Both the position numbers and the translations under genes were made by a program. The notes below the pieces were generated by a model, which saw nothing but the letters and a program-made list of their open reading frames with translations, was not told the DNA's origin and ran no database searches. DNA of 64,000 bases. Source: Gammaproteobacteria bacterium (lineage in GTDB: Bacteria > Pseudomonadota > Gammaproteobacteria > DATFLL01). Of the stretch, positions 1-45,496 are shown in pieces. The stretch's first letter is position 1; each line of letters begins with the position of its first letter. The stretch is taken from contig DATFLL010000075.1 of NCBI GenBank assembly GCA_035267785.1, forward strand, positions 41,579 through 105,578, given 5' to 3'.

Positions 1-994
1 CGTCCCCGCCGACCAGTACAAAACCGGCGACCAGTCCCGTGATCACCGCGTACATGGGTTCCATGGTGGCACAGCCGGCCGTGATGGCGACCAGGCCGCC
101 GATGGAGCCGTTGACCGTGGTCGTCATAAGCACGGGGCGCCGGCTGATCCACATCGTGGTCATGGCCCCGACCGCGCCGGAGGCGGCGGCCAAGTGGGTA
201 TTCAGGTTGATGAGCCCAATACTGGGCACGGCCGCGGCCGTGCTGCCGCCGTTGAAACCGAACCACCCCAGCCACAGGATGAAGCCCCCGAGGGCCACCA
301 GCGTCAGGTTGTGGCCCGGGATGGGACGCGCCTTTCCATCGGCATCGAATCGTCCCAGCCGCGGTCCGAGTACAATGATCCCCGCCAGCGCGACCCAGCC
401 GCCGATCGAATGCACCACGGTCGAGCCGGCAAAATCGATAAAGCCCATCTGCTTGAGCCAGCCCGAACCGGTATACAGGCTGCCCCAGGCCCAGCTGCCG
501 TAAACGGGATAGATGACGGCTGTGATGCCGATAGCCCCGACCAGATAGGACTCGTAGCGCGTGCGTTCGGCCATCGCCCCGGAGGCAATGGTCACGCAGG
601 TCGCGGCGAACATGGTCTGAAAGAGCAGCAGGCTGTAATCCATGTGTTCGGCATTGCCGAGCAGGAAGTGGTCCGTGCCCAGCCAACCGGTGGCATTGAC
701 GCCGAACATCAAACCGTAGCCCACAAGCCAGAACACGATGCTGCCCACGCACGCGTCGACGTAATTCTTCATGATGACGTTGACGGTGTTCTTGGAACGC
801 ACCATGCCACCCTCGAGCAGCGCGAAACCGGCTTGCATAAAGAACACCAGTGCGGCCGCGGTGACCAGCCAGACTGTGTCCATCGAGACCTGGAACGAGC
901 CCGTCCCGTCGGCTGCAAAGGCCGGTGCGGATAACAAAGCGAGGAGAGCCGCCGACGAGAACCTAACTATATTTTTACACCTTGATGCGAACAT
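1..994 (-). CDS. amtB: Ammonium transporter (Amt/MEP family), partial; C-terminus lies beyond the window start
   Basis: Reverse-strand translation reads MFASRCKNIVRFSSAALLALLSAPAFA (signal peptide), then MDTVWLVTAAALVFFMQAGFALLEGGMVRSKNTVNV ... IDFAGSTVVHSIGGWVALAGIIVLGPRLGRF ... GFNGGS, which are hallmark Amt motifs. ATG at 994..992 is in frame with no stops down to position 1. Missing from the ORF track because there is no in-window stop. Confidence 0.85.
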   Translation of the reverse strand, partial: MFASRCKNIVRFSSAALLALLSAPAFAADGTGSFQVSMDTVWLVTAAALVFFMQAGFALLEGGMVRSKNTVNVIMKNYVDACVGSIVFWLVGYGLMFGVNATGWLGTDHFLLGNAEHMDYSLLLFQTMFAATCVTIASGAMAERTRYESYLVGAIGITAVIYPVYGSWAWGSLYTGSGWLKQMGFIDFAGSTVVHSIGGWVALAGIIVLGPRLGRFDADGKARPIPGHNLTLVALGGFILWLGWFGFNGGSTAAAVPSIGLINLNTHLAAASGAVGAMTTMWISRRPVLMTTTVNGSIGGLVAITAGCATMEPMYAVITGLVAGFVLVGGD

Positions 995-1027
995 CGGATG
1001 CCCCTTGTTGTGTTATACGGGGCCTAG

Positions 1028-1043
1028 TGCAAGGGGTGTGCCA
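1028..1043 (-). promoter_or_regulatory. sigma54 (RpoN) -24/-12 promoter for amtB
   Basis: Minus strand reads TGGCACaccccTTGCA, an exact TGGCAC-N5-TTGCA consensus, about 35 nt upstream of the amtB ATG at 994. Confidence 0.6.
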
Positions 1044-1217
1044 TACGCGGAAATACCCCGGGGCCGTGATGTGGAACGCTTAAACGGCGCAGAGCGGTGC
1101 GGCGCGAGCGTACGGGTGCACCAAGGAGCATCGTCGCGGCGACCGCGTCGCGCCATAGTGGTGCGTTGCGGCTGCAGTGCGGCGGTCACGCTCCGCACCC
1201 GTTGGTAGGCCCAGGCC

Positions 1218-1688
1218 TCAGCGTTGGAAGTTGCCGACGAGCTCGGTGTGAGCCAGGATGTGGTCCTTCATCGCCTGTTCGAGCGTATGCTTGTCGGGTG
1301 ATGCCAGATCGGGTAGCACGGTATCCAGCGCGTACAGCTTGTGGAAGTATCGATGGCGGCCGACGGGCGGACAGGGGCCGCCGTAGCCGGTTCGCCCCCA
1401 GTTGTTCTTGCCCTCGCGGGTGCCGTTCGGTAGCTCGGTCGGCGTTACCGCCTCGGGCAGATGCGTCGCGTCAGGGGGCAGGTTGTAGAGCACCCAGTGG
1501 ACCCAGGTCATTCGCGGGGCGGCCGGGTCGGGGGCGTCGGGGTCGTCCACGATCAGCACGAGGCTCCGGGCGTCGGGCGGGACGCCGGTCCAGGCGAGCG
1601 GGGGCGAGATGTTCTCGCCGTCGCAGCTGTAGCGCGTGGGGATGGCCTGTTGGTGCTCGAAGGCGTCGGAGCGCAGTGTCAATGCCAT
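1218..1688 (-). CDS. YbhB/YbcL-family phosphatidylethanolamine-binding (PEBP/Raf-kinase-inhibitor-like) protein
   Basis: Translation MALTLRSDAFEHQQAIPTRYSCDGENISPPLAWTGVPPDARSLVLIVDDPDAP...GGPCPPVGRHRYFHKLYALD is typical of the bacterial PEBP family. Internal ATG chosen over the upstream extension. Confidence 0.8.
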   Translation of the reverse strand: MALTLRSDAFEHQQAIPTRYSCDGENISPPLAWTGVPPDARSLVLIVDDPDAPDPAAPRMTWVHWVLYNLPPDATHLPEAVTPTELPNGTREGKNNWGRTGYGGPCPPVGRHRYFHKLYALDTVLPDLASPDKHTLEQAMKDHILAHTELVGNFQR

Positions 1689-1854
1689 AGGTCCTCCTGG
1701 GGGCGTCGATGAGGCGCCGCGATCGCCCACTGTGCCTTTCCGGTGGGCAATGTCTCCGTGCACTGGGGACGGCGACTCTTATAATGAGCATGTACTGAGC
1801 ATGGTCGACCGGCGGGCGAACGTCGACCATGTTAGCCAAACGAAGGGAGCCGCA

Positions 1855-2706
1855 ATGCCCTACGAGACCCTGATCAGCGCCGAGGAGCTCTACTCCCGCC
1901 TTGGGGAGCCCGGCTGGGTGGTCGTGGACTGCCGTTTCGACCTGGCCGAGCCATCGGCCGGGCGCCGGGCGTACCGGTCCGCCCATCTGCCGGGCGCATA
2001 CTATGCTCACCTGGACGAGGACCTGTCCGGTCCGGTCGGCCGCTTCACCGGACGCCACCCGCTTCCCGCGCCCGAGGTGCTGGCCCGGCGAATCGCTGCG
2101 TGGGGTGTCGACGCCGCGACGCAGGTCGTGGCCTACGACGATCGGGGCGGGGCCTTCGCCGCGCGCCTCTGGTGGCTGCTGCGCTGGCTTGGTCATGACG
2201 CGGTTGCGGTGCTCGACGGCGGCCTGGGGGCGTGGCGCCGCCACGGTTACCCACTTGACGACCAGGTGCCGCCGGCGCGTCGTGCGGACTTCGTGCCCAA
2301 CGTGCGCGAGGCGCTGTGCCTGGACAGCGCGCAGGTCGAGGCCGCGCTGTCGCGCCAGGGGATTGCCCTGGTCGATGCGCGCGAGAGCCCGCGCTTTCGC
2401 GGCGAACACGAACCGATCGACCCCGTCGCCGGCCACATCCCCGGCGCGCGAAATCTGCCTTTTGCGGGCAACCTGGACGACGAAGGATGCTTTCTGGCGC
2501 CGGCGGCGCTGCGCTCGCGCCTGGCCTCGGTCCTGGGCGACCAGGACCCGAGCGCCAGCGTGCATATGTGCGGTTCGGGCGTGACGGCCTGTCATAACCT
2601 GCTGGCCATGGCGGTTGCCGGTTTGGGGGACGGCTGTCTGTATGCCGGTTCCTGGAGCGAGTGGATTCGCGACCCGCACCGGCCCGTGGCACGCGGTGAA
2701 GACTGA
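1855..2706 (+). CDS. sseA: Sulfurtransferase with two tandem rhodanese domains (3-mercaptopyruvate/thiosulfate sulfurtransferase)
   Basis: MPYETLISAEELYSRLGEPGWVVVDCRF ... catalytic loop VHMCGSGVTACH in the second domain. RBS AAGGGAG lies upstream of the ATG at 1855. Confidence 0.85.
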   Translation: MPYETLISAEELYSRLGEPGWVVVDCRFDLAEPSAGRRAYRSAHLPGAYYAHLDEDLSGPVGRFTGRHPLPAPEVLARRIAAWGVDAATQVVAYDDRGGAFAARLWWLLRWLGHDAVAVLDGGLGAWRRHGYPLDDQVPPARRADFVPNVREALCLDSAQVEAALSRQGIALVDARESPRFRGEHEPIDPVAGHIPGARNLPFAGNLDDEGCFLAPAALRSRLASVLGDQDPSASVHMCGSGVTACHNLLAMAVAGLGDGCLYAGSWSEWIRDPHRPVARGED

Positions 2707-2810
2707 GCTGGGGAGTCCGCCGTTAGCGGCGTCCGGGACGATTTCGGTTTGGTGGGGCAGTGAATACTGCTAACATCGTTGGAAAACGATAACGACGCCG
2801 GAGAGGGAGC

Positions 2811-3263
2811 ATGCCGCAGCAAGACACCCTAAAAGAGCGCCGGGGGCAGTCGCTTGATCAGCTGAAGAATCTGCTCAAGACCCGGACGGCGACTCTGGCA
2901 CTGTTCAGCCAGCTCGCTGCCAAGCGTCCCTTCAAGCCCGAGCCGGTGGTCCAGGAACTGCTGCAGGAGTTTTGTGAGTCCCTGGTGGACTATACGGCGA
3001 TCGCGCATTTTCAGCTCTATCGCCATTTCCAGGGTGGCCGGGAGCGCCGCCAGCCTGTGGTCGCGATCGCTGAGCAGGTCTACCACCGCATTGCCGATAC
3101 CACGGCTCAAATCCTGGATTTCAACGACAAGTATGATTGCGGCGACCACTGCGACGACCTGGGGGGCCTTGCCGATGACCTCTCCCGCCTGGGCGAGGTG
3201 CTGGCCGATCGCATCAATCTCGAAGACCGCGTCATCGCCGCATTGCGCGGCGCTCAGCGCTGA
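2811..3263 (+). CDS. rsd: Rsd/AlgQ family regulator of sigma D (anti-sigma70)
   Basis: FCESLVDYTAIAHFQLYRHF aligns to E. coli Rsd FCQSLVDYLSAGHFSIYERI. Length is 150 aa. RBS GGAGAGGGAG. Confidence 0.8.
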   Translation: MPQQDTLKERRGQSLDQLKNLLKTRTATLALFSQLAAKRPFKPEPVVQELLQEFCESLVDYTAIAHFQLYRHFQGGRERRQPVVAIAEQVYHRIADTTAQILDFNDKYDCGDHCDDLGGLADDLSRLGEVLADRINLEDRVIAALRGAQR

Positions 3264-3295
3264 CGTCCCTGCTCAGGCCGGTTGTGGCTCCGGCC

Positions 3296-3460
3296 TTACC
3301 GCGCCTGTACCCAGGGCCGCGCCCAACCCAGTGCATGGGCTCTTTCGGCCTCCTCCTCGTTGACTGTCTCGGTCGCATCATTTTCCGCGGCCAGCGCCTG
3401 CAAGGCCTCCCGGACGCTCAGTTCCTGGACCTCATAGATTGGCAACGGCGAGTCTTCCAT
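3296..3460 (-). CDS. Small hypothetical acidic protein (54 aa), below the ORF-track size cutoff
   Basis: Minus-strand ATG at 3460 is preceded by AAGGGAGG at a 6-7 nt spacing. Translation is MEDSPLPIYEVQELSVREALQALAAENDATETVNEEEAERAHALGWARPWVQAR, with stop TAA at 3298-3296. Convergent with rsd. Confidence 0.4.
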   Translation of the reverse strand: MEDSPLPIYEVQELSVREALQALAAENDATETVNEEEAERAHALGWARPWVQAR

Positions 3461-3483
3461 CGAACTTTTCCTCCCTTGTTTTA

Positions 3484-3600
3484 AGTGGTTATATAGGAAA
3501 AGTTAAAGTGAAATGCAAGTTGTTTTTATATCATACTGATTTAAAATAATAAATATTAGGGTTCCGCCGCCGTGCGGGGCTTGTGTTATGTTGCCGAGAT
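3484..3600. other. AT-rich intergenic tract with strongly atypical composition for this window
   Basis: ttaagtggttatataggaaaagttaaagtgaaatgcaagttgtttttatatcatactgatttaaaataataaatattagg sits inside DNA that is otherwise about two-thirds GC. It is upstream of the vapD-like gene. Confidence 0.6.
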
Positions 3601-3680
3601 CGGGGCCGGCGCCTCACCTCGCGCCCGTGGAGCGTGGGAGACCCGTCGCTCGGTCCGAATCGTTACACCGAGGAACACGC

Positions 3681-4025
3681 ATGACTTACGCAATCGTCGT
3701 GAATATGGACTACGAGAACAATCCGCCCGAAACGTGCGGCGATCTATGGGAGGAGATAAAGCGGCGAATGCTGGCGGCAGGATTTATCCGCGACGGGCGG
3801 ACCTTCACCACTTCCCTGCCGGAAAAGGAGGCGACCCGCCTGGCCCGACGGGTCATGGCCGAACTCGAGGAACAGCTCGAGCGGCACGACCGGGACGTCT
3901 ACCATTACTTGAGAGACTTCTACGGCTACGATCTGGCGTATACCACCAACCTGATGCTGCCGCCCACCGAGGAGATCGAGGTCGAGGAGGAGACGCCGAC
4001 GCGCCCCTCCAAGCCCGGTCAGTAA
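3681..4025 (+). CDS. vapD: VapD-family (Cas2-like endoribonuclease fold) protein, orphan
   Basis: MTYAIVVNMDYENNPPETCGDLWEEIKRRMLAAGFIRDGRTFTT ... DVYHYLRDFYGYDLAYTT parallels VapD MYAIAFDL...LGFEWTQGSVY...DIRAFKVTDFSDFT. RBS GAGGA lies before the ATG at 3681. Confidence 0.5.
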   Translation: MTYAIVVNMDYENNPPETCGDLWEEIKRRMLAAGFIRDGRTFTTSLPEKEATRLARRVMAELEEQLERHDRDVYHYLRDFYGYDLAYTTNLMLPPTEEIEVEEETPTRPSKPGQ

Positions 4026-4058
4026 GCGCCTACCGGAGGATTTGGACCTCGGGCCCTG

Positions 4059-4238
4059 TCAGCGGCCGCTGAAGCCGCTGTGTTCCTGCAGGTCCTCGCC
4101 GGCTCCGTTCGGCCGCCGCTGTCGGGCCTCACGCAGGCGGCGGCGGATCGGTTCGGTGATCCCCATCTGATGGCCGAGGTGGAAACCCAGCCAAAAGGCC
4201 AACATGGAAGCGGCGAGGGCGGCGGCGATGGTCAGCAC
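4059..4238 (-). CDS. Small single-TM membrane protein (59 aa), GTG start
   Basis: GGAGG RBS then GTG. Translation is VLTIAAALAASMLAFWLGFHLGHQMGITEPIRRRLREARQRRPNGAGEDLQEHSGFSGR, a hydrophobic helix followed by a basic tail. Confidence 0.4.
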   Translation of the reverse strand: MLTIAAALAASMLAFWLGFHLGHQMGITEPIRRRLREARQRRPNGAGEDLQEHSGFSGR

Positions 4239-4516
4239 GGCGAATCCTCCTGACAGGCGAAATAAAGGCTCCTTCAAGTGATATCGACCACCCACCCGGC
4301 GTCTTGAACCGGCCCGAGAGATTGAGCACCGGCGTAGCGCCCCTTCACCCGTGGACCGACATCAGAGGTCACAATCTGACACGCCGCGTCACGGGTGCCT
4401 CTGATTATCACGAACTGAAGCGGATTTCCTGCCGTTTTGATTTGGCACGCGGATTGTATGGGTTAAGTGCGAATGTCAAATGGCCGTTACCCGGTCGTCA
4501 CAAAGGCTACCTGCGC

Positions 4517-4921
4517 ATGTCTCAGCCCCAGGATCCCGTCGACAAGCGATCGCCCGGCCGACGGACGTTGCGGCGCGTGCCGTTGACCGACGACGATCTA
4601 CGCCGCCAGACCGCCGAGCGGCGCGGCACGGGCGGTACCAGCGACGACAACCGCGACTGCGGTTTTCTGCCCGCCTTCCGCGACAGCCTGACGGGCAAGA
4701 TCTACCCGTCGCGTTACGCCGACGGCCGCCCGGCCTGCGTCCACCTGCTGGAGGGCCTGCCGGGGGATCTGGTGGTCGAGCGGGGCACGGACGGCCAGCC
4801 GGTCGCCGTCAAAGGTTCCCTGGAGCCGGGATTCACGCGCGAGGGGCGCTTCTACACCCGCGAAGAGGCGGCGGCCTTGGCGGCCGAGACGGGGGCGAGG
4901 GGAGAGCGCGCGACAGGCTGA
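4517..4921 (+). CDS. Hypothetical protein (134 aa)
   Basis: ORF MSQPQDPVDKRSPGRRTLRRVPLTDDDLRRQ...CGFLPAFRDSLTGKIYPSRYADGRPACVHLLEGLPGDLVVERGTDGQPVAVKGSLEPGFTREGRFYTREEAAALAAE. I recognise no family. Internal ATG chosen. Confidence 0.45.
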   Translation: MSQPQDPVDKRSPGRRTLRRVPLTDDDLRRQTAERRGTGGTSDDNRDCGFLPAFRDSLTGKIYPSRYADGRPACVHLLEGLPGDLVVERGTDGQPVAVKGSLEPGFTREGRFYTREEAAALAAETGARGERATG

Positions 4922-4943
4922 GGCTTGGCCCGGCGAGGCCCGC

Positions 4944-6953
4944 CTACAACTCGGTGCCGGCGTCGTCGGCGACAGGCGGCACCGTCTGCATCCGTTGCTG
5001 GAGTGGCTCCGGCGAATATCCCAGCCGCTGCTGGTAGATCACCGTGTAGGCCATGACCCGGCGGAGATAATTGCGGGTCTCGGCATAGGGGACGGTTTCG
5101 ACCCACACGTCCGCCGCCATGGGGCCGCTCTGCGGTTGCCATGCCCGTACCCGTCGGGCTCCGGCATTGTACGCCGCCGTTGCCAGCACGGTGTGGCCCC
5201 CGAAGCGATCCTCGACCCGTTTCAGGTAGCGTACCCCCAATCGGATATTCGTACCTGCATCGAGCAGGGCCGAGCGGTTTCCCAGATGGACCTGCAGGGT
5301 ACGGGCCATCTGGCGCGCGGTGCGCGGCAGCAGCTGCATCAGGCCCATGGCCCCGGCGGACGAATGGGCATCGGGCGTAAAGGCGCTTTCCTGGCGAATG
5401 ACCGCGAAGGCCCAGGCCGGATCGATATCGTGGCTGGCCGCTTCGCTCACGACCTCGTCCTGGTAGGCCAGCGGGAAGCGCAGCTTCAAATCATCCCAGT
5501 AACGCGCGCGCCCGAGAGTGAAAATCGCGCGGTCGTGCCAACCCCATTGATGCGCCAGCTGGGCGGCCTTGAGCAACTGCGGCTCGCTCAATGTCGGCAG
5601 TACGGTGCGCCACTCGCGCCGTGCGTCGACGACGTGGCCGATGTGGAAGAGCTCACGCGCCCGTTGAATACCGGGCAGGTCCGCCACCTCGCGCAGCTCC
5701 TCGGCGCGATAGACCAGGGGGCGCTCGTCGAATCGGTAGGCCGTACCGGCGCGGTCGGCGGCCAGGAACCCGTAATAGCCCCGCTCGGCGGCCAATGACT
5801 TATACAGCGCCTTGGCCGGCGCCTTTCGTCCCATCGCCTCCAGGGCCCGGGCGCGCCAGTAGCGCCAGCGAGCGCTTTGGCGCCGCTCGGGGGCGAGCGC
5901 ATCGATCCAGGTCAATGCCTGTTCCCACTCGCCCTCGCGCAGCGCGGCCACGATATGGGTAGTGCGCAAGCGGCGCAGCGCGGCGGGATCCTTGATGCGT
6001 TGTATCCAGTGGGCGGCGCCGGCATCTCCCGCATCGGCCAGCTCCAGGGCGATGGTCCGCTCGATGGCCGCGCGTTCGATCTTCGTGACTGGGGCGCTGG
6101 CGCCGTGCGTCTGCCAGAAGGCCGCGGCACGCTGCGGGTCCGCGTGGGCAAGGCGGCGCAGCCCGTCGCTCAGGATCCAGCCGGCGAGCCCATTGGGGGT
6201 AGCTGCCGCGGCCAGCAGGCCCGGCTCGGTCAGGACCCGCTGGGGCTCGCGGCGGATCTGGCGCCAGAGGGTGACCTGGCCGCGTTGGGCCTGCGGCAGG
6301 TAGCGGGCCAGGTAGCCCGCCAGGCCGGACTGGCCCGCCTGCATGGCCAGGTGGATGCGCTCCCAGACCAGATCGGGCGTCAGGTTGCCCGCTTCGCGCC
6401 ACGCGCGGAAGACAGGGTCGCAGCTCTTCGGGCGCGACCGGCCGACCAGCCACAGCGAGCGAACGACGGGGCCCGCCTTGTCCTGCTGCATTTGCTCGAG
6501 TAAGGCACGGGCATAGTCGCAACGCAGCGTCTCGCCGGTCCCCGGGACGTAGGCGGCCAGAAATTGTTTCCACTGGCGGCGGCGTGCCAGGGTGTCCAGC
6601 CAATCGCGCTGCAGCCGGGGGGCGAGCGGGGTATCGGCGTAGCGATCGAGGAAGGCCTTGATACGCGCCGCCTTGGCGCCATCGAGTTCCTGTTCGAGGC
6701 GGTCGAAGACGAGGTAAGGATAGAGGGGATAGTCGCGCAGGGTCGCGGCGAGGCGCTCGAAGGTGGCCGTGTCGCCTGCGGCCAGGGCGCGCTCGGCGGC
6801 CACGAAGGCCTGGCGTTCCAGCTGTGGCGGGCGTGCGGGGGCACCTGCGAGCGCTGCCGTGCTCACTGCGGCGGCGGCCAATAGGATTGCGCCCGCGGCG
6901 TGCCGGGCACGGCCTCGCGGCCGGCAGCGGGAATCGGCGGATTGGAATTTCAC
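4944..6953 (-). CDS. slt: Soluble lytic murein transglycosylase (Slt70 family)
   Basis: GTG start VKFQSADSRC... with signal peptide AILLAAAAVSTAALAG. N-terminal superhelical repeats. C-terminal SLT domain with IRQESAFTPDAHSSAGAMGLMQLLPRTA and ATAAYNAG. Confidence 0.85.
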   Translation of the reverse strand: MKFQSADSRCRPRGRARHAAGAILLAAAAVSTAALAGAPARPPQLERQAFVAAERALAAGDTATFERLAATLRDYPLYPYLVFDRLEQELDGAKAARIKAFLDRYADTPLAPRLQRDWLDTLARRRQWKQFLAAYVPGTGETLRCDYARALLEQMQQDKAGPVVRSLWLVGRSRPKSCDPVFRAWREAGNLTPDLVWERIHLAMQAGQSGLAGYLARYLPQAQRGQVTLWRQIRREPQRVLTEPGLLAAAATPNGLAGWILSDGLRRLAHADPQRAAAFWQTHGASAPVTKIERAAIERTIALELADAGDAGAAHWIQRIKDPAALRRLRTTHIVAALREGEWEQALTWIDALAPERRQSARWRYWRARALEAMGRKAPAKALYKSLAAERGYYGFLAADRAGTAYRFDERPLVYRAEELREVADLPGIQRARELFHIGHVVDARREWRTVLPTLSEPQLLKAAQLAHQWGWHDRAIFTLGRARYWDDLKLRFPLAYQDEVVSEAASHDIDPAWAFAVIRQESAFTPDAHSSAGAMGLMQLLPRTARQMARTLQVHLGNRSALLDAGTNIRLGVRYLKRVEDRFGGHTVLATAAYNAGARRVRAWQPQSGPMAADVWVETVPYAETRNYLRRVMAYTVIYQQRLGYSPEPLQQRMQTVPPVADDAGTEL

Positions 6954-7221
6954 GGCCAGCCCCCTGATTTTCGATACCTTTTCCCTACGGGTATCCGATA
7001 GGGTCCCACTATAGTCATCGGCAGGCGCAGAGCAAAGGTTGAGCCGCGTCCAACTGCCCGCAGGCCGGTTGCGGCCGGCCAATCGGAGCAGCCCGATCCG
7101 GGCCCGGTATGGTTTATACTGCGGGTTTTTAGCGTGGCCGCCCCGACATTGCCCACGGGCGGCCCCTGCATGCGTTCCCGCGCGGATGCCTATCCGGCGC
7201 GGCCAGTCCTGGAGTCCGTCG

Positions 7222-8907
7222 ATGACCGAGAAGCTCAACAAATACAGCGCCCGCATCACCCAGCCGAAGTCCCAGGGAGCCTCCCAGGCCATGCTCTACG
7301 GCACCGGCCTGACCGAAAAGGACCTGGACAAGCCCGAGGTCGGCATCTCCTCGGTCTGGTGGGAGGGCAACACCTGCAACATGCACCTCAACGACCTGGC
7401 CGCCAAGGTCAAGGAGGGCGTCGAGGCCGCGGGACTGGTGGGGATGCGCTTCAACACCATCGGTGTCTCCGACGGCATTTCCATGGGCACCGAGGGCATG
7501 AGCTACTCGCTGCAGTCGCGCGACCTCATCGCCGATTCGGTCGAGACGGTCATGAAGGGCCAGTGGTACGACGCGAACATCTCCCTGCCCGGCTGCGACA
7601 AGAACATGCCGGGCGTGCTGATTGCGATGGGGCGCGTCAACCGCCCCTCGCTGATGATCTATGGTGGGACCATCAAGCCCGGCTATACTGACAAGGGGCA
7701 CGAGGTGGTGGATATCGTCTCGGCCTTCCAGAGCTATGGCCAGTTCCTCGCCCAGCGCATCGACGAGACCGAGCGCCAGGACATCGTGCGCCACGCCTGT
7801 CCGGGGGCCGGCGCCTGCGGCGGCATGTATACGGCCAATACCATGGCCTCGGCAATCGAGGCCATGGGCATGTCCCTGCCCTACAGCTCCTCGACGCCGG
7901 CGGTCGATCCCCTGAAGCTCGACGAATGCGTTCGCGCCGGACAGGCCATTCGCCACCTGCTCGAGCGCGATATCAAGCCGCGCGACATCATGACCCGCGA
8001 GGCCTTCGAGAATGCGATGGTGATCGTGATGGCGCTGGGCGGTTCGACCAATGCCGTGCTGCATCTCATCGCCATGGCGCGTTCGGTCGAGGTGGACTTG
8101 ACCATCGACGATTTCCAGGCCGTCTCCGACCGGGTGCCCTTCCTCGCCGACCTCAAGCCCTCGGGCAAGTACGTGATGGAGGACCTGCACAACGTTGGCG
8201 GGACCCCGGCCGTGATGAAGTATCTGATGGAACAGGGCCTGATCAACGGCGATTGCCTGACCGTCACCGGCAAGACGGTCGCAGAGAACCTCGCCGATCT
8301 CCCGGGGCTGAGCGCCGGACAGGAGGTGTTCCGCCCGGTGGAGCGGCCCATCAAGGAGACCGGTCATATTCAGATCCTCAAGGGCAACCTCGCCCCGGGC
8401 GGATCGGTGGCCAAGATCACCGGCAAGGAGGGTCTGCAGTTCTCCGGTCCGGCCCGAGTGTTCGACTGCGAGGAAGACATGCTCAAGGGCCTGGAGGAGG
8501 GCCGCATCCGGAAGGGCGATGTGGTCATCATCCGCTACGAGGGACCGAAGGGTGGTCCGGGCATGCCCGAGATGTTGACGCCGACCTCGGCGATCATGGG
8601 GGCGGGCTTGGGCAGCGATGTGGCCCTGCTGACCGACGGACGCTTCTCCGGCGGTTCACACGGTTTCATCATCGGGCATATCGTACCCGAGGCGCAGGAA
8701 GGCGGACCGCTGGCGCTGGTGCGCGACGGTGACACGGTTACCATCGATGCCGCCCGGCGCGCCATCGAGGTCGATGTCGACGAGCAGGAGATGGCCCGCC
8801 GGCGCGAGGCGTGGCAGATGCCCCCCTATAAGGCGACCCGCGGAACACTGTCCAAGTACATCAAGAACGTCAAGAACGCCTCCGAGGGCTGTGTCACCGA
8901 CGAATAA
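7222..8907 (+). CDS. ilvD: Dihydroxy-acid dehydratase
   Basis: [30 protein letters not shown] ... CDKNMPG ... [16 protein letters not shown]. Full-length IlvD, 561 aa. Confidence 0.95.
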
Positions 8908-8930
8908 GCCTGCCGCCGTCGCCGGCACGC

Positions 8931-8963
8931 GCTCGTTCACGGGCGGTGCCGGCACCCTCTAAA
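8931..8963 (+). terminator. GC-rich hairpin downstream of ilvD (putative terminator)
   Basis: GCCGGCAC gcgctcgttcacgggcg GTGCCGGC is an 8-bp perfect stem. No strong T-tract follows. Confidence 0.35.
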
Positions 8964-9020
8964 GAATCTATGGATTGGCACGATAGAATAATTATATAAG
9001 GTTCCGATCAGGAGGCGGCC

Positions 9021-11666
9021 GTGCGCCGCCAAGGCCCGGGTAAGGGGGGAGCCGTCTGCGAGGGCGGCGCCGACACTCGGCGTATCTGCCAGGGTGGCTG
9101 CGTCTCGACTCTGACGTTGGACGGTTCCATGGCCGGTTCACGCGTTATCCGATTCCTGACCCAGAGCCTGCGGGGGCGCTACCTCGCGGTGGCCATCTCG
9201 CTGGGGCTCATCACTCTCATCACCGCCTGGTCCATGGGCTGGTATGTTTCGCGTGCCAGCCGTTCGAGCACGGCCCATATCGAGCAGCGCTATCGCATCC
9301 TTCAGGAGAGTCGGGGCATCCGCGACGCTGTTTGGCAGGCGGATTTCGCGCTGCAGTCCTATGCTCTGTCGCCGGACAGCGACACGCGCGCCACGGTGCA
9401 CCGAGGCATCGCCGTCGCCATTCAGCGTGTCGAACGCCTGCGCCGCCAGCCCGACCTCGACGACCCGCGCGTGCGCCAAGAGCTTCGTGTGCTCAGGAGC
9501 GAGCTGCAGAAGTTCGACAGTCAGGCGGCGGCGCTCATGCAGACGCGTGTGGATGTGGACGAGCTGTTTCCGGCCATAGGACTGGCCCGAACTTCCATGC
9601 TGCCCAAGCAGATCGGTTTCTATACGGCTGCGAACTTGGCAATGCGCGAGGCGGCCGAGGAGCACGGCCGTGACTCCGCCGACTATCGTCTATTCGAGGC
9701 GGCTCGTTATACCTGGTCGCAGATGATCGCGGCCTACCGCTTGTATCTCATCAATCGACTCGCCTCGCTGGGCGAGGTTAGGTTGACCAATCAGGCCGAG
9801 GACGTCGAACAGCTGTACGCGGTCGTCCAGGACAGGCTGGTGGCACTGCAGCGACTGAAGGCGCGCGGGCGTTTGGGTCTGCAGGGCTCGCAATCGCTGG
9901 AGGAAATGCAGGACCAGGCCGCCGAGTGGCAGCAGGATTTCACCACAGTGGTTGACATCGCGCGTTCGGACCGTTGGCGCACCGACATTCCCTTGTTCCG
10001 GCGTTCGATCGAGCCGCTGCTCGGTTCGATCTGGGAGCACCTGCAGGTCATCGATGAGCACTTGATGGGCGCGGCCGCCGCAGACGTGTCTCGCCTGGCT
10101 GAGGTGGCTGCGTCCATCAGTCACGCATTGTGGGTACTCAGTGGCGTGGCCATGCTGGTAATTGTCTTCGGATTTCGCCACTTCGAGCGTCGGGTACTGC
10201 GCCCGATGACCCAGGTCGCTAGAGCGCTGAAGAACGAGGCCATGGGTCGGTCCGACTTCGATTTGCCCACGCTGCCCGCGGTCAAGACCTGGGAGACGCA
10301 GAACCTGATCGATGCCTTCTCCGAGATGCGTCGCCAGGTGCATTCGCGTCAGCGCGAGCTCGAGCACCAGGCCCTACACGACGCATTGACCAACCTGCCC
10401 AATCGTACGCTGCTGCAGGACCGTCTACAGCAGAGCGTGGTCGTCGCCCAGCGCGAGGGTACCAGCACCGCGCTGCTGATCATGGACCTGGATCGCTTCA
10501 AGGAAATCAACGACACACTCGGCCATCATGTGGGCGACCTCGTGCTGCAGCAGGTCGGCGCCCGTTTGACCGAACTGCTGCGCGAAAGCGACACGGTCGC
10601 GCGCCTCGGCGGCGATGAATTTGCGATCCTGCTGCCCGGAGGCGGCGAAGAGGGTGCCGAGAGGATAGCCCGAAAGACATTGAATGCCCTGGAACGGGTA
10701 TTGCGCGTGGCGCACCACAATCTTTACGTCGGTGGGAGCATCGGCATCGCCCTGTCACCCGAACACGGCACCGATGTCCAGACACTGATGCAGCGCGCCG
10801 ATGTGGCGATGTATGTCGCCAAACGGAAGAACGTCGGTTACAGCGTCTATTCCAGCGCCCAGGACCAATACAGCGTCGGGCGTCTGGCGCTGGTCAGTGA
10901 GCTTCGCAGCGCCATCAATACCGATCAGTTGGAACTGCACTATCAGCCCAAACTCGACGTCAAGACCGGCCGCATGGTCGGTGTCGAGGCCCTGCTGCGC
11001 TGGGATCATCCGGTACGCGGCAACATTACGCCCGAGGAGATCATTCCCGTTGCCGAGCAGACCGGGCTCATCAAGCTCCTCACGCTCTGGGTACTCGAAC
11101 GGGCAATCCGGCAAACCGCTGAGTGGCGCCGTCGGGGACTGGACATTCACGTGGCGGTCAACCTGTCGGTGTGGAACCTCCACGACCCGGACCTCGAGCG
11201 CCAGATCGCCCACAGCCTGGATCAATGGGAGCTGCCTCCCGAGCGCCTCGTGCTGGAGATCACCGAAAGTGCGACCATGGCCGATCCCCATCATGCCCTG
11301 GAAACGCTGCTGCGCTTGGATGCCATGGGGATGCGCCTGTCCATCGACGACTTCGGCACCGGATTTTCATCCCTGGCCTATCTGAAAAAATTTCCCGTCG
11401 ACGAGCTCAAGATAGACAAGTCGTTCGTCATCGACACGTTCGTCGACGAAAACGATGCGGTCATCGTCCGCTCGACCATCGATCTTGCCCACAACCTGGG
11501 CCTGGAAGTGGTCGCCGAAGGGGTGGAGGAAAAGGACGTCTTCGACATGTTGTACGTCCTGGGCTGTGATATCGCCCAAGGACATTATTTCAGCCGGCCG
11601 CTGGCGCCGGCCGAGCTGTTTGAATGGGCGGCACGCCTCGGCGTTACAGGTGTGGAAGCCTATTGA
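9021..11666 (+). CDS. Membrane-anchored sensory diguanylate cyclase/phosphodiesterase (N-terminal sensor domain, TM segments, GGDEF + EAL)
   Basis: GGDEF motif RLGGDEFAILL and EAL motif EALLRWDHP with ELKIDKSFV. GTG at 9021 is preceded by AGGAGG at 5 nt. An alternative ATG at 9129 (MAGSRVIRFL) lies just before the first TM helix. Confidence 0.85.
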   Translation: MRRQGPGKGGAVCEGGADTRRICQGGCVSTLTLDGSMAGSRVIRFLTQSLRGRYLAVAISLGLITLITAWSMGWYVSRASRSSTAHIEQRYRILQESRGIRDAVWQADFALQSYALSPDSDTRATVHRGIAVAIQRVERLRRQPDLDDPRVRQELRVLRSELQKFDSQAAALMQTRVDVDELFPAIGLARTSMLPKQIGFYTAANLAMREAAEEHGRDSADYRLFEAARYTWSQMIAAYRLYLINRLASLGEVRLTNQAEDVEQLYAVVQDRLVALQRLKARGRLGLQGSQSLEEMQDQAAEWQQDFTTVVDIARSDRWRTDIPLFRRSIEPLLGSIWEHLQVIDEHLMGAAAADVSRLAEVAASISHALWVLSGVAMLVIVFGFRHFERRVLRPMTQVARALKNEAMGRSDFDLPTLPAVKTWETQNLIDAFSEMRRQVHSRQRELEHQALHDALTNLPNRTLLQDRLQQSVVVAQREGTSTALLIMDLDRFKEINDTLGHHVGDLVLQQVGARLTELLRESDTVARLGGDEFAILLPGGGEEGAERIARKTLNALERVLRVAHHNLYVGGSIGIALSPEHGTDVQTLMQRADVAMYVAKRKNVGYSVYSSAQDQYSVGRLALVSELRSAINTDQLELHYQPKLDVKTGRMVGVEALLRWDHPVRGNITPEEIIPVAEQTGLIKLLTLWVLERAIRQTAEWRRRGLDIHVAVNLSVWNLHDPDLERQIAHSLDQWELPPERLVLEITESATMADPHHALETLLRLDAMGMRLSIDDFGTGFSSLAYLKKFPVDELKIDKSFVIDTFVDENDAVIVRSTIDLAHNLGLEVVAEGVEEKDVFDMLYVLGCDIAQGHYFSRPLAPAELFEWAARLGVTGVEAY

Positions 11667-11687
11667 GCGCCGGTTGGCGCCAGCGGC

Positions 11688-12953
<1,266 letters not shown>

Positions 12954-44707: not shown

Positions 44708-45496
44708 GTGAGTTTGGCCAATGAGATTCACCCCACGGCGCTCGTGGCGCCGGGCGCGCGACTCGGCGAGGGTAACCGGATAGGTCCCTTTGCCATCGTC
44801 GAGGACGATGTCGAGCTGGGCGACGGCAACGCGGTCCTGGCCCACGCGGTGCTCAAGGCGGGCTGTCGCATCGGCAATGCCAACCGCATTCACGAGCACG
44901 CGGTGATCGGCGGCCTGCCGCAGGATGTCTCCTTCGAGGACCGGTGGACCTTCGTGACCATCGGCGATCGCAACGTGCTGCGCGAGGGCGTCACCGTGCA
45001 CCGCGCCACCCGTGAAGAGGGCAGCACGCGCCTGGGCAACGACAATTTTCTGATGGTGAACGTGCACCTGGGCCATGACTGCCAGTTCGGCGACCGTATC
45101 ATCGTCGCGACCGGCTCGGGATTCGGCGGTCACGTATCGGTGGCCGATCGTGCCTTTGTGTCGGGTGGGGTCATGGTGCACCAGCACGCCCGGATCGGCC
45201 GGTTCGCCATGATCGGCGGCAACACCAAGCTTACCCAGGACGCCCTGCCGTTTATGATCACCGACGGGGTGCCGGGTACGGTGCGCGGGCTCAACGCGGT
45301 AGGGCTCAAGCGCGGCGGTTTTGCCGCTGCCGACCTGCGCGCGCTCAAGCAGGCCTACCGGACCCTGTTTCGGGCCGGCGGCTCTCTGGAGGGGCACCTC
45401 GCAGAGCTCGCCGCCAGCGAGCATCCCCTGGTCGCAGAGCTGGCCGCCTTCATCGGCGCGTCCAAGCGGGGATTTCACCGCGATCGGGAGCTGTGA
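44708..45496 (+). CDS. lpxA: Acyl-[ACP]--UDP-N-acetylglucosamine O-acyltransferase
   Basis: ANEIHPTALVAPGARLGEGNRIGPFAIV ... hexapeptide repeats ... GLKRGGF (compare E. coli LpxA SAFVHPTAIVEEGASIG...GLKRRGF). Start is ambiguous: GTG 44708 or TTG 44714 after AAGGGAGA. Confidence 0.8.
   Translation: MSLANEIHPTALVAPGARLGEGNRIGPFAIVEDDVELGDGNAVLAHAVLKAGCRIGNANRIHEHAVIGGLPQDVSFEDRWTFVTIGDRNVLREGVTVHRATREEGSTRLGNDNFLMVNVHLGHDCQFGDRIIVATGSGFGGHVSVADRAFVSGGVMVHQHARIGRFAMIGGNTKLTQDALPFMITDGVPGTVRGLNAVGLKRGGFAAADLRALKQAYRTLFRAGGSLEGHLAELAASEHPLVAELAAFIGASKRGFHRDREL

Follow-up and report, generated by a model that had tools for sequence, protein, structure and literature searches.

An AT-rich tract between rsd and slt in a GC-rich gammaproteobacterial genome: a probable promoter region in a vertically inherited gene cluster with a distant VapD/Cas2-like member

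Does a short, sharply AT-rich tract in a GC-rich chromosome, next to a gene for a toxin-like protein, mark a piece of foreign DNA? Such a tract lies between rsd and slt in a 64,000-nucleotide stretch of a gammaproteobacterial contig (GenBank assembly GCA_035267785.1, contig DATFLL010000075.1, positions 41,579 to 105,578), which was analysed as a whole and is called the window here. An earlier note, made from the sequence alone, had read the region at 3.48-4.94 kb as a small horizontally acquired islet with an AT-rich foreign edge, possibly silenced by H-NS, and with an orphan gene for a VapD toxin or ribonuclease, a protein of 114 amino acids (aa). We consider a different account likely: the tract is the promoter region of a small gene, s54; the genes around it form a vertically inherited cluster; and the 114-aa protein comes from a remote branch of the VapD/Cas2 superfamily and is not a VapD-type toxin.

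The interval between rsd and slt holds four small genes: s54 on the minus strand, the 114-aa VapD-like gene on the plus strand, tm on the minus strand and a gene for a 134-aa protein on the plus strand. The last three (the 114-aa gene, the tiny membrane protein and the hypothetical gene) had been listed before, while s54, at 3296-3460, had been overlooked. The starts of s54 and the 114-aa gene, which point away from each other, are separated by the AT-rich tract. As a composition outlier the tract is real and well beyond chance. Over 100-bp stretches of the 64 kb, GC content averages 0.66 with a standard deviation of 0.061; the lowest value in the window, 0.24, is reached at 3459-3558, and the tract is the only one below 0.42 among all these stretches. 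The whole tract (3470-3562) is 26% GC, as against 66%, and its core (3476-3558) is 19% GC. An AT-rich tract in DNA that is otherwise about two-thirds GC is thereby confirmed; the span of 3484-3593 originally given measures 35% GC.

To place the tract among related loci, we used 80 loci with Rsd relatives from a scan of metagenome contigs, annotated with per-gene hidden Markov models (HMMs). These loci reveal a widespread backbone of rsd, s54(-), tm(-), slt(-) and ilvD, with two slots in which the 114-aa and the 134-aa gene may or may not be present. The HMM finds s54 beside rsd in about 40 loci, and orthologues of 28-58 aa occupy the same place in all relatives. The s54 protein is acidic (isoelectric point (pI) 4.3) and has the N-terminal motif (E)LPxYEVxELSxxEA, given as ELPxYEVEELSxEEA for the window together with its related loci; searches of Pfam, NCBIfam, PADLOC and the PDB gave no match to the protein. 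Its ATG (3460-3458) is preceded by a GGGAGG Shine-Dalgarno sequence, and the start adjoins the tract. The gene is convergent to rsd, an arrangement conserved across many uncultured Gammaproteobacteria. In six close loci the tract stands at the same place, with 16-19% GC over 80 bp in loci of 60-69% GC overall. It also persists in many loci that have no VapD-like gene and in which s54 runs directly into tm, about 170 bp away.

The 125 nt that precede s54 were compared in an alignment of 31 distinct loci. Read on the s54 strand, the shared architecture is AAATCAATAAGTTA, about 9 nt, CTTGATA, 17 nt, CTATATAAC, about 20 nt, GGAGG and ATG, and the three motifs keep the same spacing in the 31 loci, with or without the VapD-like gene. 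The copy in the window, on the minus strand, consists of AAATCAGTATGATA (3542-3529), TTGCAT (3518-3513), a 17-nt spacer, TATATA (3495-3490), GGGAGG and the ATG at 3460. The two hexamers, 17 bp apart and about 30 nt upstream of the s54 start codon, would form the -35 and -10 elements of a sigma-70-type promoter, with an A/T box upstream. This box is the most conserved element of the tract across relatives. The consensus for IHF binding is WATCAANNNNTTR; the AAATCAATAAGTTA of most relatives fits it, as a consensus match only, and IHF may be the protein that binds there. The conservation of the motifs reflects selection, because in the adjacent gene no more than 38-55% of four-fold degenerate sites agree between the window and more distant relatives (L004-L008).

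Three AT-rich cis-elements within about 80 bp, held by selection, would keep the tract AT-rich in a 66% GC genome. Since the spike amounts to about 90 bp of conserved, putatively cis-regulatory DNA that is present even where the VapD-like gene is not, its composition can be explained without a foreign origin. The premise of H-NS-type silencing also looks weak, for the tract is short, appears not to be foreign and is conserved motif by motif in the 31 loci. The tract probably also lies upstream of a promoter for the divergent 114-aa gene. A consensus scan found no promoter for that gene, and RNA folding of its leader and first codons (3595-3700) is unremarkable (z = +0.78). Three terminator-like hairpins were reported by a scan, no more than expected by chance, and an Rfam scan of 2500-5500 (E <= 1) returned no RNA family. 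An attachment site or a remnant of an insertion sequence was ruled out for the tract, its motifs being kept in 31 loci and flanking repeats not being found. In one relative (L004, 3354-3520), about 150 bp of extra DNA are inserted between the s54 start codon and the AT-rich tract; this insertion holds an inverted-repeat-like sequence, TTAGAACCTATCTCAAAATT ... AATTTTGAGATAGGTTCTA, and could be a small mobile or palindromic element.

The genes of the interval have a native composition. The GC content at third codon positions (GC3) of the four small genes is 0.73, 0.80, 0.83 and 0.87, and that of the neighbouring rsd, slt, ilvD, rhodanese and PBP genes is 0.76-0.88. Close relatives have the gene order PBP, rhodanese, rsd, s54, 114-aa, tm, 134-aa, slt, ilvD. 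This order does not change among relatives with 66-97% identity in Rsd and a GC content of 59-69%, and it is kept down to 57-63% identity of the 114-aa protein. In a neighbour-joining tree of Rsd, the window groups in a single clade with all loci whose Rsd is at least 66% identical. Throughout this clade s54, the VapD-like gene and tm are all present, in an unchanged order; absences of the VapD-like gene are confined to more distant clades. The same s54/VapD-like pair is found in a second group of two loci, L053 and L082 (47% GC). Pairwise identities of the VapD-like protein and of Rsd are strongly correlated (Pearson 0.93, Spearman 0.82; 11 loci, the pairs not being independent).

Hallmarks of a genomic island were not found. 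There is no tRNA gene in 1-12000 and no integrase- or transposase-like open reading frame (ORF) between rsd and slt; repeats are short and of chance length, with none flanking above chance. A tblastn search with the 114-aa protein gave no match in 72,556 plasmids and 50,697 phage records. A comparison of relatives had been set beforehand as a check on the islet, and it largely refutes it: in the relatives, these genes occupy the corresponding locus and the local composition is unchanged. The claim of foreign origin likewise finds no support, given the native GC3, the missing island hallmarks and plasmid or phage homologues, and the co-variation with Rsd. Together, these results indicate that the four small genes between rsd and slt are a vertically inherited cluster and not a recently acquired islet; a recent islet is excluded, and the pattern fits a long vertical co-inheritance with losses elsewhere.

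The 114-aa protein has 8 close homologues, and its family comprises 84 clusters at 50% identity, 82 of them 37-151 aa long. Residues N8, D10, Y11, G34, F35, R40, F42, A55 and F80 are near-invariant, and a conserved acidic C-terminal tail follows the pattern NL-x-x-P...I-x-V-x-E. Neither the window protein nor two relatives matched the curated models PF09827 of Pfam, NF041506 (VapD) of NCBIfam and TIGR01573 (cas2) at E <= 1; PF09827 was touched by one of 74 family members, with an E-value of 0.049. Genuine VapDs, by comparison, reach 24-28 bits with PF09827 and 41 bits with NF041506. VapD did not come up in sequence searches of the PDB, whether the query was the protein itself or the profile of its family; they gave only a chance match to GT-1 (E 0.04). 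The assignment to VapD in the earlier note fails in the Pfam and NCBIfam profile search; what stands of it is a remote homology and a Cas2/VapD fold.

An AlphaFold2 model built from a 74-sequence alignment (mean predicted local distance difference test score (pLDDT) 92.3) has the topology strand, helix, strand, strand, helix, strand. With this predicted model as the query, two independent structure searches rank VapD first among all PDB chains, and the six best Foldseek matches are all VapD (E 3.9e-4 to 4.7e-3, probability 1.00). Sequence statistics point the same way in both directions. The HMM of the family detects 73 of 122 real VapDs at P < 1e-4, the lowest P-value being 2.7e-7, whereas the best of 1,220 shuffled VapDs reaches 4.5e-4; in the reverse test with a VapD HMM, the best family member reaches 1.4e-5 and the best of 740 shuffled members 5.6e-4. 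Our conclusion is that these proteins are truly related to the VapD/Cas2 superfamily, as a remote branch that falls outside the VapD family in its current definition. The 114-aa protein may well dimerise. A related-locus search with a narrower family alignment led to three genomes. Distant family members occur singly and in unrelated chromosomal neighbourhoods. Members from three clusters (L014 4168-5360, L016 4104-5360 and L011 376-1624) lie divergently beside a spermine/spermidine-synthase-like gene (PF01564). The member in Thioalkalivibrio sulfidiphilus follows a putative HDOD-domain ORF, a call read from the sequence and not profile-checked, and precedes an hrpB-like helicase gene; another is flanked by a glycosyltransferase gene and a molybdopterin oxidoreductase gene.

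VapD activity needs an Asp in strand 1 and a Ser in the loop between strands 2 and 3, both putative catalytic residues (PMC11980593). The pair is Asp7/Ser43 in Haemophilus influenzae and Helicobacter pylori and D11/S46 in Campylobacter jejuni, and the D7N substitution abolishes toxicity (PMC11980593). In our alignments, R40 falls on VapD Ser43 and D10 on VapD D12 by both hhalign and hmmsearch; N8 is placed on VapD D7 by hhalign, which covers strand 1, the hmmsearch match starting at D10. Position 8 is Asn in 63 of the 74 members and Asp in two, and position 40 is Arg in 68 and Ser in one. On the predicted model, N8, D10, Y11, R40 and F42 map to strand 1 and to the hairpin of strands 2 and 3, at the expected place of the VapD cleft. 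The cleft seems to be kept but remodelled, and both catalytic residues of the VapD nuclease appear, from these alignments, to be lost. The 114-aa protein is most likely not a VapD-type toxin, because the catalytic positions are substituted and there is no antitoxin-like partner. The remodelled cleft may bind nucleic acid or a nucleotide ligand, or possibly cut one by a different chemistry.

The partners of known VapD systems were not seen either. An adjacent, co-oriented antitoxin of the VapXD, VapYD or VapWD type is absent from the locus, the neighbours of the 114-aa gene being the divergent s54 and the convergent tm. The antitoxins VapX and VapY have an SH3-like barrel. If the 114-aa protein is not a VapD-type toxin, the lack of an accompanying antitoxin would be explained. 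The absence of a CRISPR array, as reported earlier, holds for the 64-kb window, and that of a VapX-like partner for the immediate neighbours of the 114-aa gene. Among the called neighbours in orthologous and more distant loci there are no cas genes, although no systematic cas search was made. The description of VapD as a stand-alone ribonuclease or toxin is retained in its first part only: the protein stands alone, and the ribonuclease or toxin reading is weakened by the substitution of both catalytic positions.

Several observations weigh against parts of this account. In the homology, hhalign against a 122-sequence VapD alignment gives a probability of 17% (pairwise P 0.0014), and against a two-sequence VapD alignment 5%. 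The residue equivalences come from low-identity alignments, and D10 could replace Asp7, in which case a nuclease would still be possible. As for the promoter, a strict sigma-70 consensus scan of 3200-5000 returned none, and the -35 hexamer of the window, TTGCAT, agrees with the consensus at three of six positions only. IHF binding in the window is uncertain, the box AAATCAGTATGATA being degenerate, and another AT-binding regulator could be its reader. Finally, many lineages retain s54, tm and slt but have no VapD-like gene, a pattern that an ancient insertion into the slot would explain as well as repeated loss.

One alternative keeps the enzymatic activity: in it, the 114-aa protein is a functional stand-alone nuclease within the Cas2/VapD superfamily whose active site has been rewired (D10, Y11 and R40). 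The most conserved residues of the family cluster at the VapD/Cas2 catalytic cleft. An Asp at the end of strand 1 is a hallmark of Cas2. The analogy would be with BPSL1038 of Burkholderia pseudomallei, a chromosomal, CRISPR-independent nuclease with a Cas2/VapD fold, which constitutes its own sub-family with a private motif and shows that divergent stand-alone sub-families can retain nuclease activity (PMC10491678). In addition, a sister clade has a bona fide Endonuclease_NS gene in the same slot. However, the residue aligned with the catalytic Asp is Asn, the very change that inactivates VapD as D7N, and the one aligned with the catalytic Ser is Arg. The protein is acidic (pI 4.7), is accompanied by neither an immunity nor an antitoxin protein, is encoded in stable chromosomal surroundings as a single copy and belongs to a family that lacks the SST motif of BPSL1038. 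We regard such a nuclease as unlikely.

Another possibility is that the resemblance to VapD is mere convergence on the common ferredoxin-like fold, and that the protein serves a different purpose, such as that of a small regulator or a chaperone-like factor. The silence of the curated VapD/Cas2 profiles and the low hhalign probability of 17% speak for it. In contrast, VapD comes out on top in two independent structure searches over all PDB chains, the HMM-to-sequence P-values of real VapDs are about 1000 times better than those of shuffled controls in both directions, and there is agreement in the lengths and order of the elements, in the M-x-YAI strand at the N-terminus and in the GF motif that follows helix 1. 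On balance, convergence is quite improbable. The least tenable alternative is the islet with an orphan VapD toxin or ribonuclease, which is suggested by the striking composition of the tract, the VapD-like fold, the stand-alone occurrence of about half of the known VapD homologues (PMC11980593) and a slot between s54 and tm that varies across distant lineages (empty, VapD-like or Endonuclease_NS), but which is made highly improbable by an AT-rich part that is about 90 bp of non-coding DNA only beside genes with native GC3, a tract that goes with s54 and is present where the VapD-like gene is absent, clade-wide synteny with co-divergence of the VapD-like gene and Rsd, a locus without integrase, tRNA gene, repeats above chance length or plasmid and phage homologues, and the substitution of both VapD catalytic positions.

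The slot beside s54 varies in content over long evolutionary distances. In a low-GC sister clade, the place between the s54 promoter and tm is taken by a gene for a DNA/RNA non-specific endonuclease (Endonuclease_NS, PF01223, E 1e-40), divergent from s54 (L095 4818-6127; also L061, L075, L083, L088, L091 and L098), and the next gene often codes for a DUF3592 membrane protein. That two unrelated genes of nuclease type should both stand divergent to s54 in this place is suggestive; this may be a coincidence, since s54 also occurs with an empty slot. It is tempting to speculate that s54 and the divergent gene form a functional pair in which s54 regulates or neutralises a nuclease-type protein, one with a VapD/Cas2 fold here and Endonuclease_NS in the sister clade, but we give this idea little credence. 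A simpler version, with s54 as the antitoxin of the VapD-like protein, was not adopted: the two genes are divergent rather than co-transcribed, s54 is common without the VapD-like gene, and the VapD-like gene is found without s54. If the pair were real, it would be a new chromosomally fixed, rsd-linked module, together with a new active-site variant of the Cas2 superfamily, N-x-D-Y ... G-R-x-F.

The coordinates of the features are collected in Table 1.

Table 1. Features of the rsd-slt interval and its flanks, in positions of the window
Feature	Position	Strand	Remarks
rsd (regulator of sigma-70)	2811-3263	+	Pfam PF04353, E 1.4e-31; left flank; anchor gene of all related loci
s54, 54-aa acidic protein	3296-3460	-	Own Shine-Dalgarno sequence; orthologues at the same place in relatives
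AT-rich tract, probable s54 promoter/regulatory region	3470-3562		26% GC; orthologous tract in all s54-bearing loci
Proposed s54 -10 hexamer TATATA	3490-3495	-	Within conserved block CTATATAAC; proposed from conservation and spacing
Proposed s54 -35 hexamer TTGCAT	3513-3518	-	TTGATA or TTGAAT in relatives; 17 bp upstream of -10
Upstream box AAATCAGTATGATA	3529-3542	-	Consensus of relatives AAATCAATAAGTTA; degenerate copy in the window
Candidate extended -10 TGtTATGTT of the VapD-like gene	3584-3592	+	Weakly conserved as TGTGnTAnnTT; speculative
Gene for the 114-aa VapD-like protein	3681-4025	+	pI 4.7; VapD/Cas2-like ferredoxin fold
tm, 59-aa basic single-pass membrane protein	4059-4238	-	GTG start; AGGAGG Shine-Dalgarno sequence; pI 11.5
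Sigma-54-type -24/-12 element TTGGCACGCGGATTGTAT	4442-4459	+	58 nt upstream of the 134-aa gene
Gene for the 134-aa conserved hypothetical protein	4517-4921	+	Family independent of the VapD-like gene
slt (soluble lytic transglycosylase), right flank	4944-7292	-	Maximal ORF, true start probably near 6965; orthologues carry PF01464, PF14718 and PF27553

The remaining two small genes are tm and the gene for the 134-aa protein. The tm protein has a hydrophobic N-terminal helix (19-residue Kyte-Doolittle maximum 1.95) and a conserved FWxGYxLGxQxGxTExIR motif, and it has no relative in Pfam or NCBIfam. Its HMM places it between rsd and slt in many loci without the VapD-like gene. A PADLOC search matched none of the four small proteins to a defence system beyond noise. 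The 134-aa protein has the core motif GFLPAFRD...YPS..ADGRPACVH.LEGLP and no match in the PDB. Its 101 homologues, in Competibacteraceae, Burkholderiales and Betaproteobacteria among others, have no Pfam domain on record, and those found elsewhere lie in unrelated neighbourhoods. Because its family is wider and its neighbourhoods elsewhere are unrelated, the protein has no functional tie to the VapD-like gene.

Upstream of the 134-aa gene, a block TTGG.A.G....TG is invariant in six orthologous loci and resembles a sigma-54 promoter, for which the criterion was GG and GC dinucleotides 10 bp apart within TGGCAC-N5-TTGC. The -12 element has the canonical GC in four of the six loci, the more distant relatives, and GT in the window and L001. 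The element lies at 4442-4459 (+) in the window, at 8806-8823 in L001 and at about 3893-3912 in L018, and a similar TTGGCGCGCGATTTGCC stands upstream of a Competibacteraceae homologue of the gene. The pattern alone is not significant in the window, with 3 matches and 0.97 expected. The two other loose matches (TGGCAY-N5-WTGY) are at 1029-1043 (-) and 44868-44882 (-). About 70 bp upstream of the sigma-54-type element there is a conserved GTCAGAAT block (GTCACAAT at 4368-4375).

Most of this is ordinary: what is probably a conserved promoter, and small genes specific to the lineage. The case shows that an abrupt rise in AT content within a GC-rich genome is not in itself a sign of foreign DNA and can be a conserved cis-regulatory block that resists GC pressure. 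What is modestly novel is an undescribed stand-alone branch of the VapD/Cas2 superfamily with a conserved Asn and Arg aligned to both catalytic residues. This unannotated family, which has no Pfam or NCBIfam model, extends the superfamily by a stand-alone, non-mobile and vertically inherited branch, and is relevant to the repurposing of Cas2-fold nucleases. The practical yield is modest: a better annotation of s54, tm and the 134-aa family in uncultured Chromatiales-like Gammaproteobacteria, and promoter motifs that can be tested.

Compared with known systems, the putative control region resembles sigma-70 promoters with upstream A/T-rich elements of the UP or IHF type, with which it shares the hexamer spacing and an A/T box just upstream of the -35 element; it differs from them in that the box and the -35 hexamer of the window are degenerate and the promoter is predicted from sequence. 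The 114-aa protein is set apart from Cas2 by the absence of a CRISPR array in the window, of cas domains among the called neighbours and of matches to PF09827 and TIGR01573. With VapD (H. influenzae VapXD, PDB 6zi0/6zn8; H. pylori HP0315, PDB 3ui3) it has in common the N-terminal (M)YAI strand and the GF motif after helix 1, and the profile similarity spans the loop, helix 1, strands 2-3 and helix 2. Like the protein described here, about half of the VapD homologues stand alone (PMC11980593). Unlike VapD, it fails the curated VapD/Cas2 models that detect genuine VapDs, its family aligns conserved Asn8 and Arg40 to Asp7 and Ser43 and has the extra conserved acidic C-terminal tail, and its gene has no VapX, VapY or VapW neighbour and is stably syntenic on the chromosome, with no plasmid or phage homologue.

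By description only, BPSL1038 is similar in being a small chromosomal stand-alone protein with a Cas2/VapD fold; it keeps the Cas2-equivalent Asp and a D11(X20)SST motif, which is absent from the 114-aa family. The closest precedent is VapW, an inactive VapD homologue that serves as an antitoxin (C. jejuni VapD-VapW, PDB 9kan). To our knowledge, VapW is the only described precedent of an inactivated VapD. VapW sits beside an active VapD and neutralises it, whereas neither the window nor the related loci examined contain a second VapD/Cas2-like ORF. In contrast to VapW, the substituted positions of the 114-aa family are strongly conserved, which suggests that they have a function of their own.

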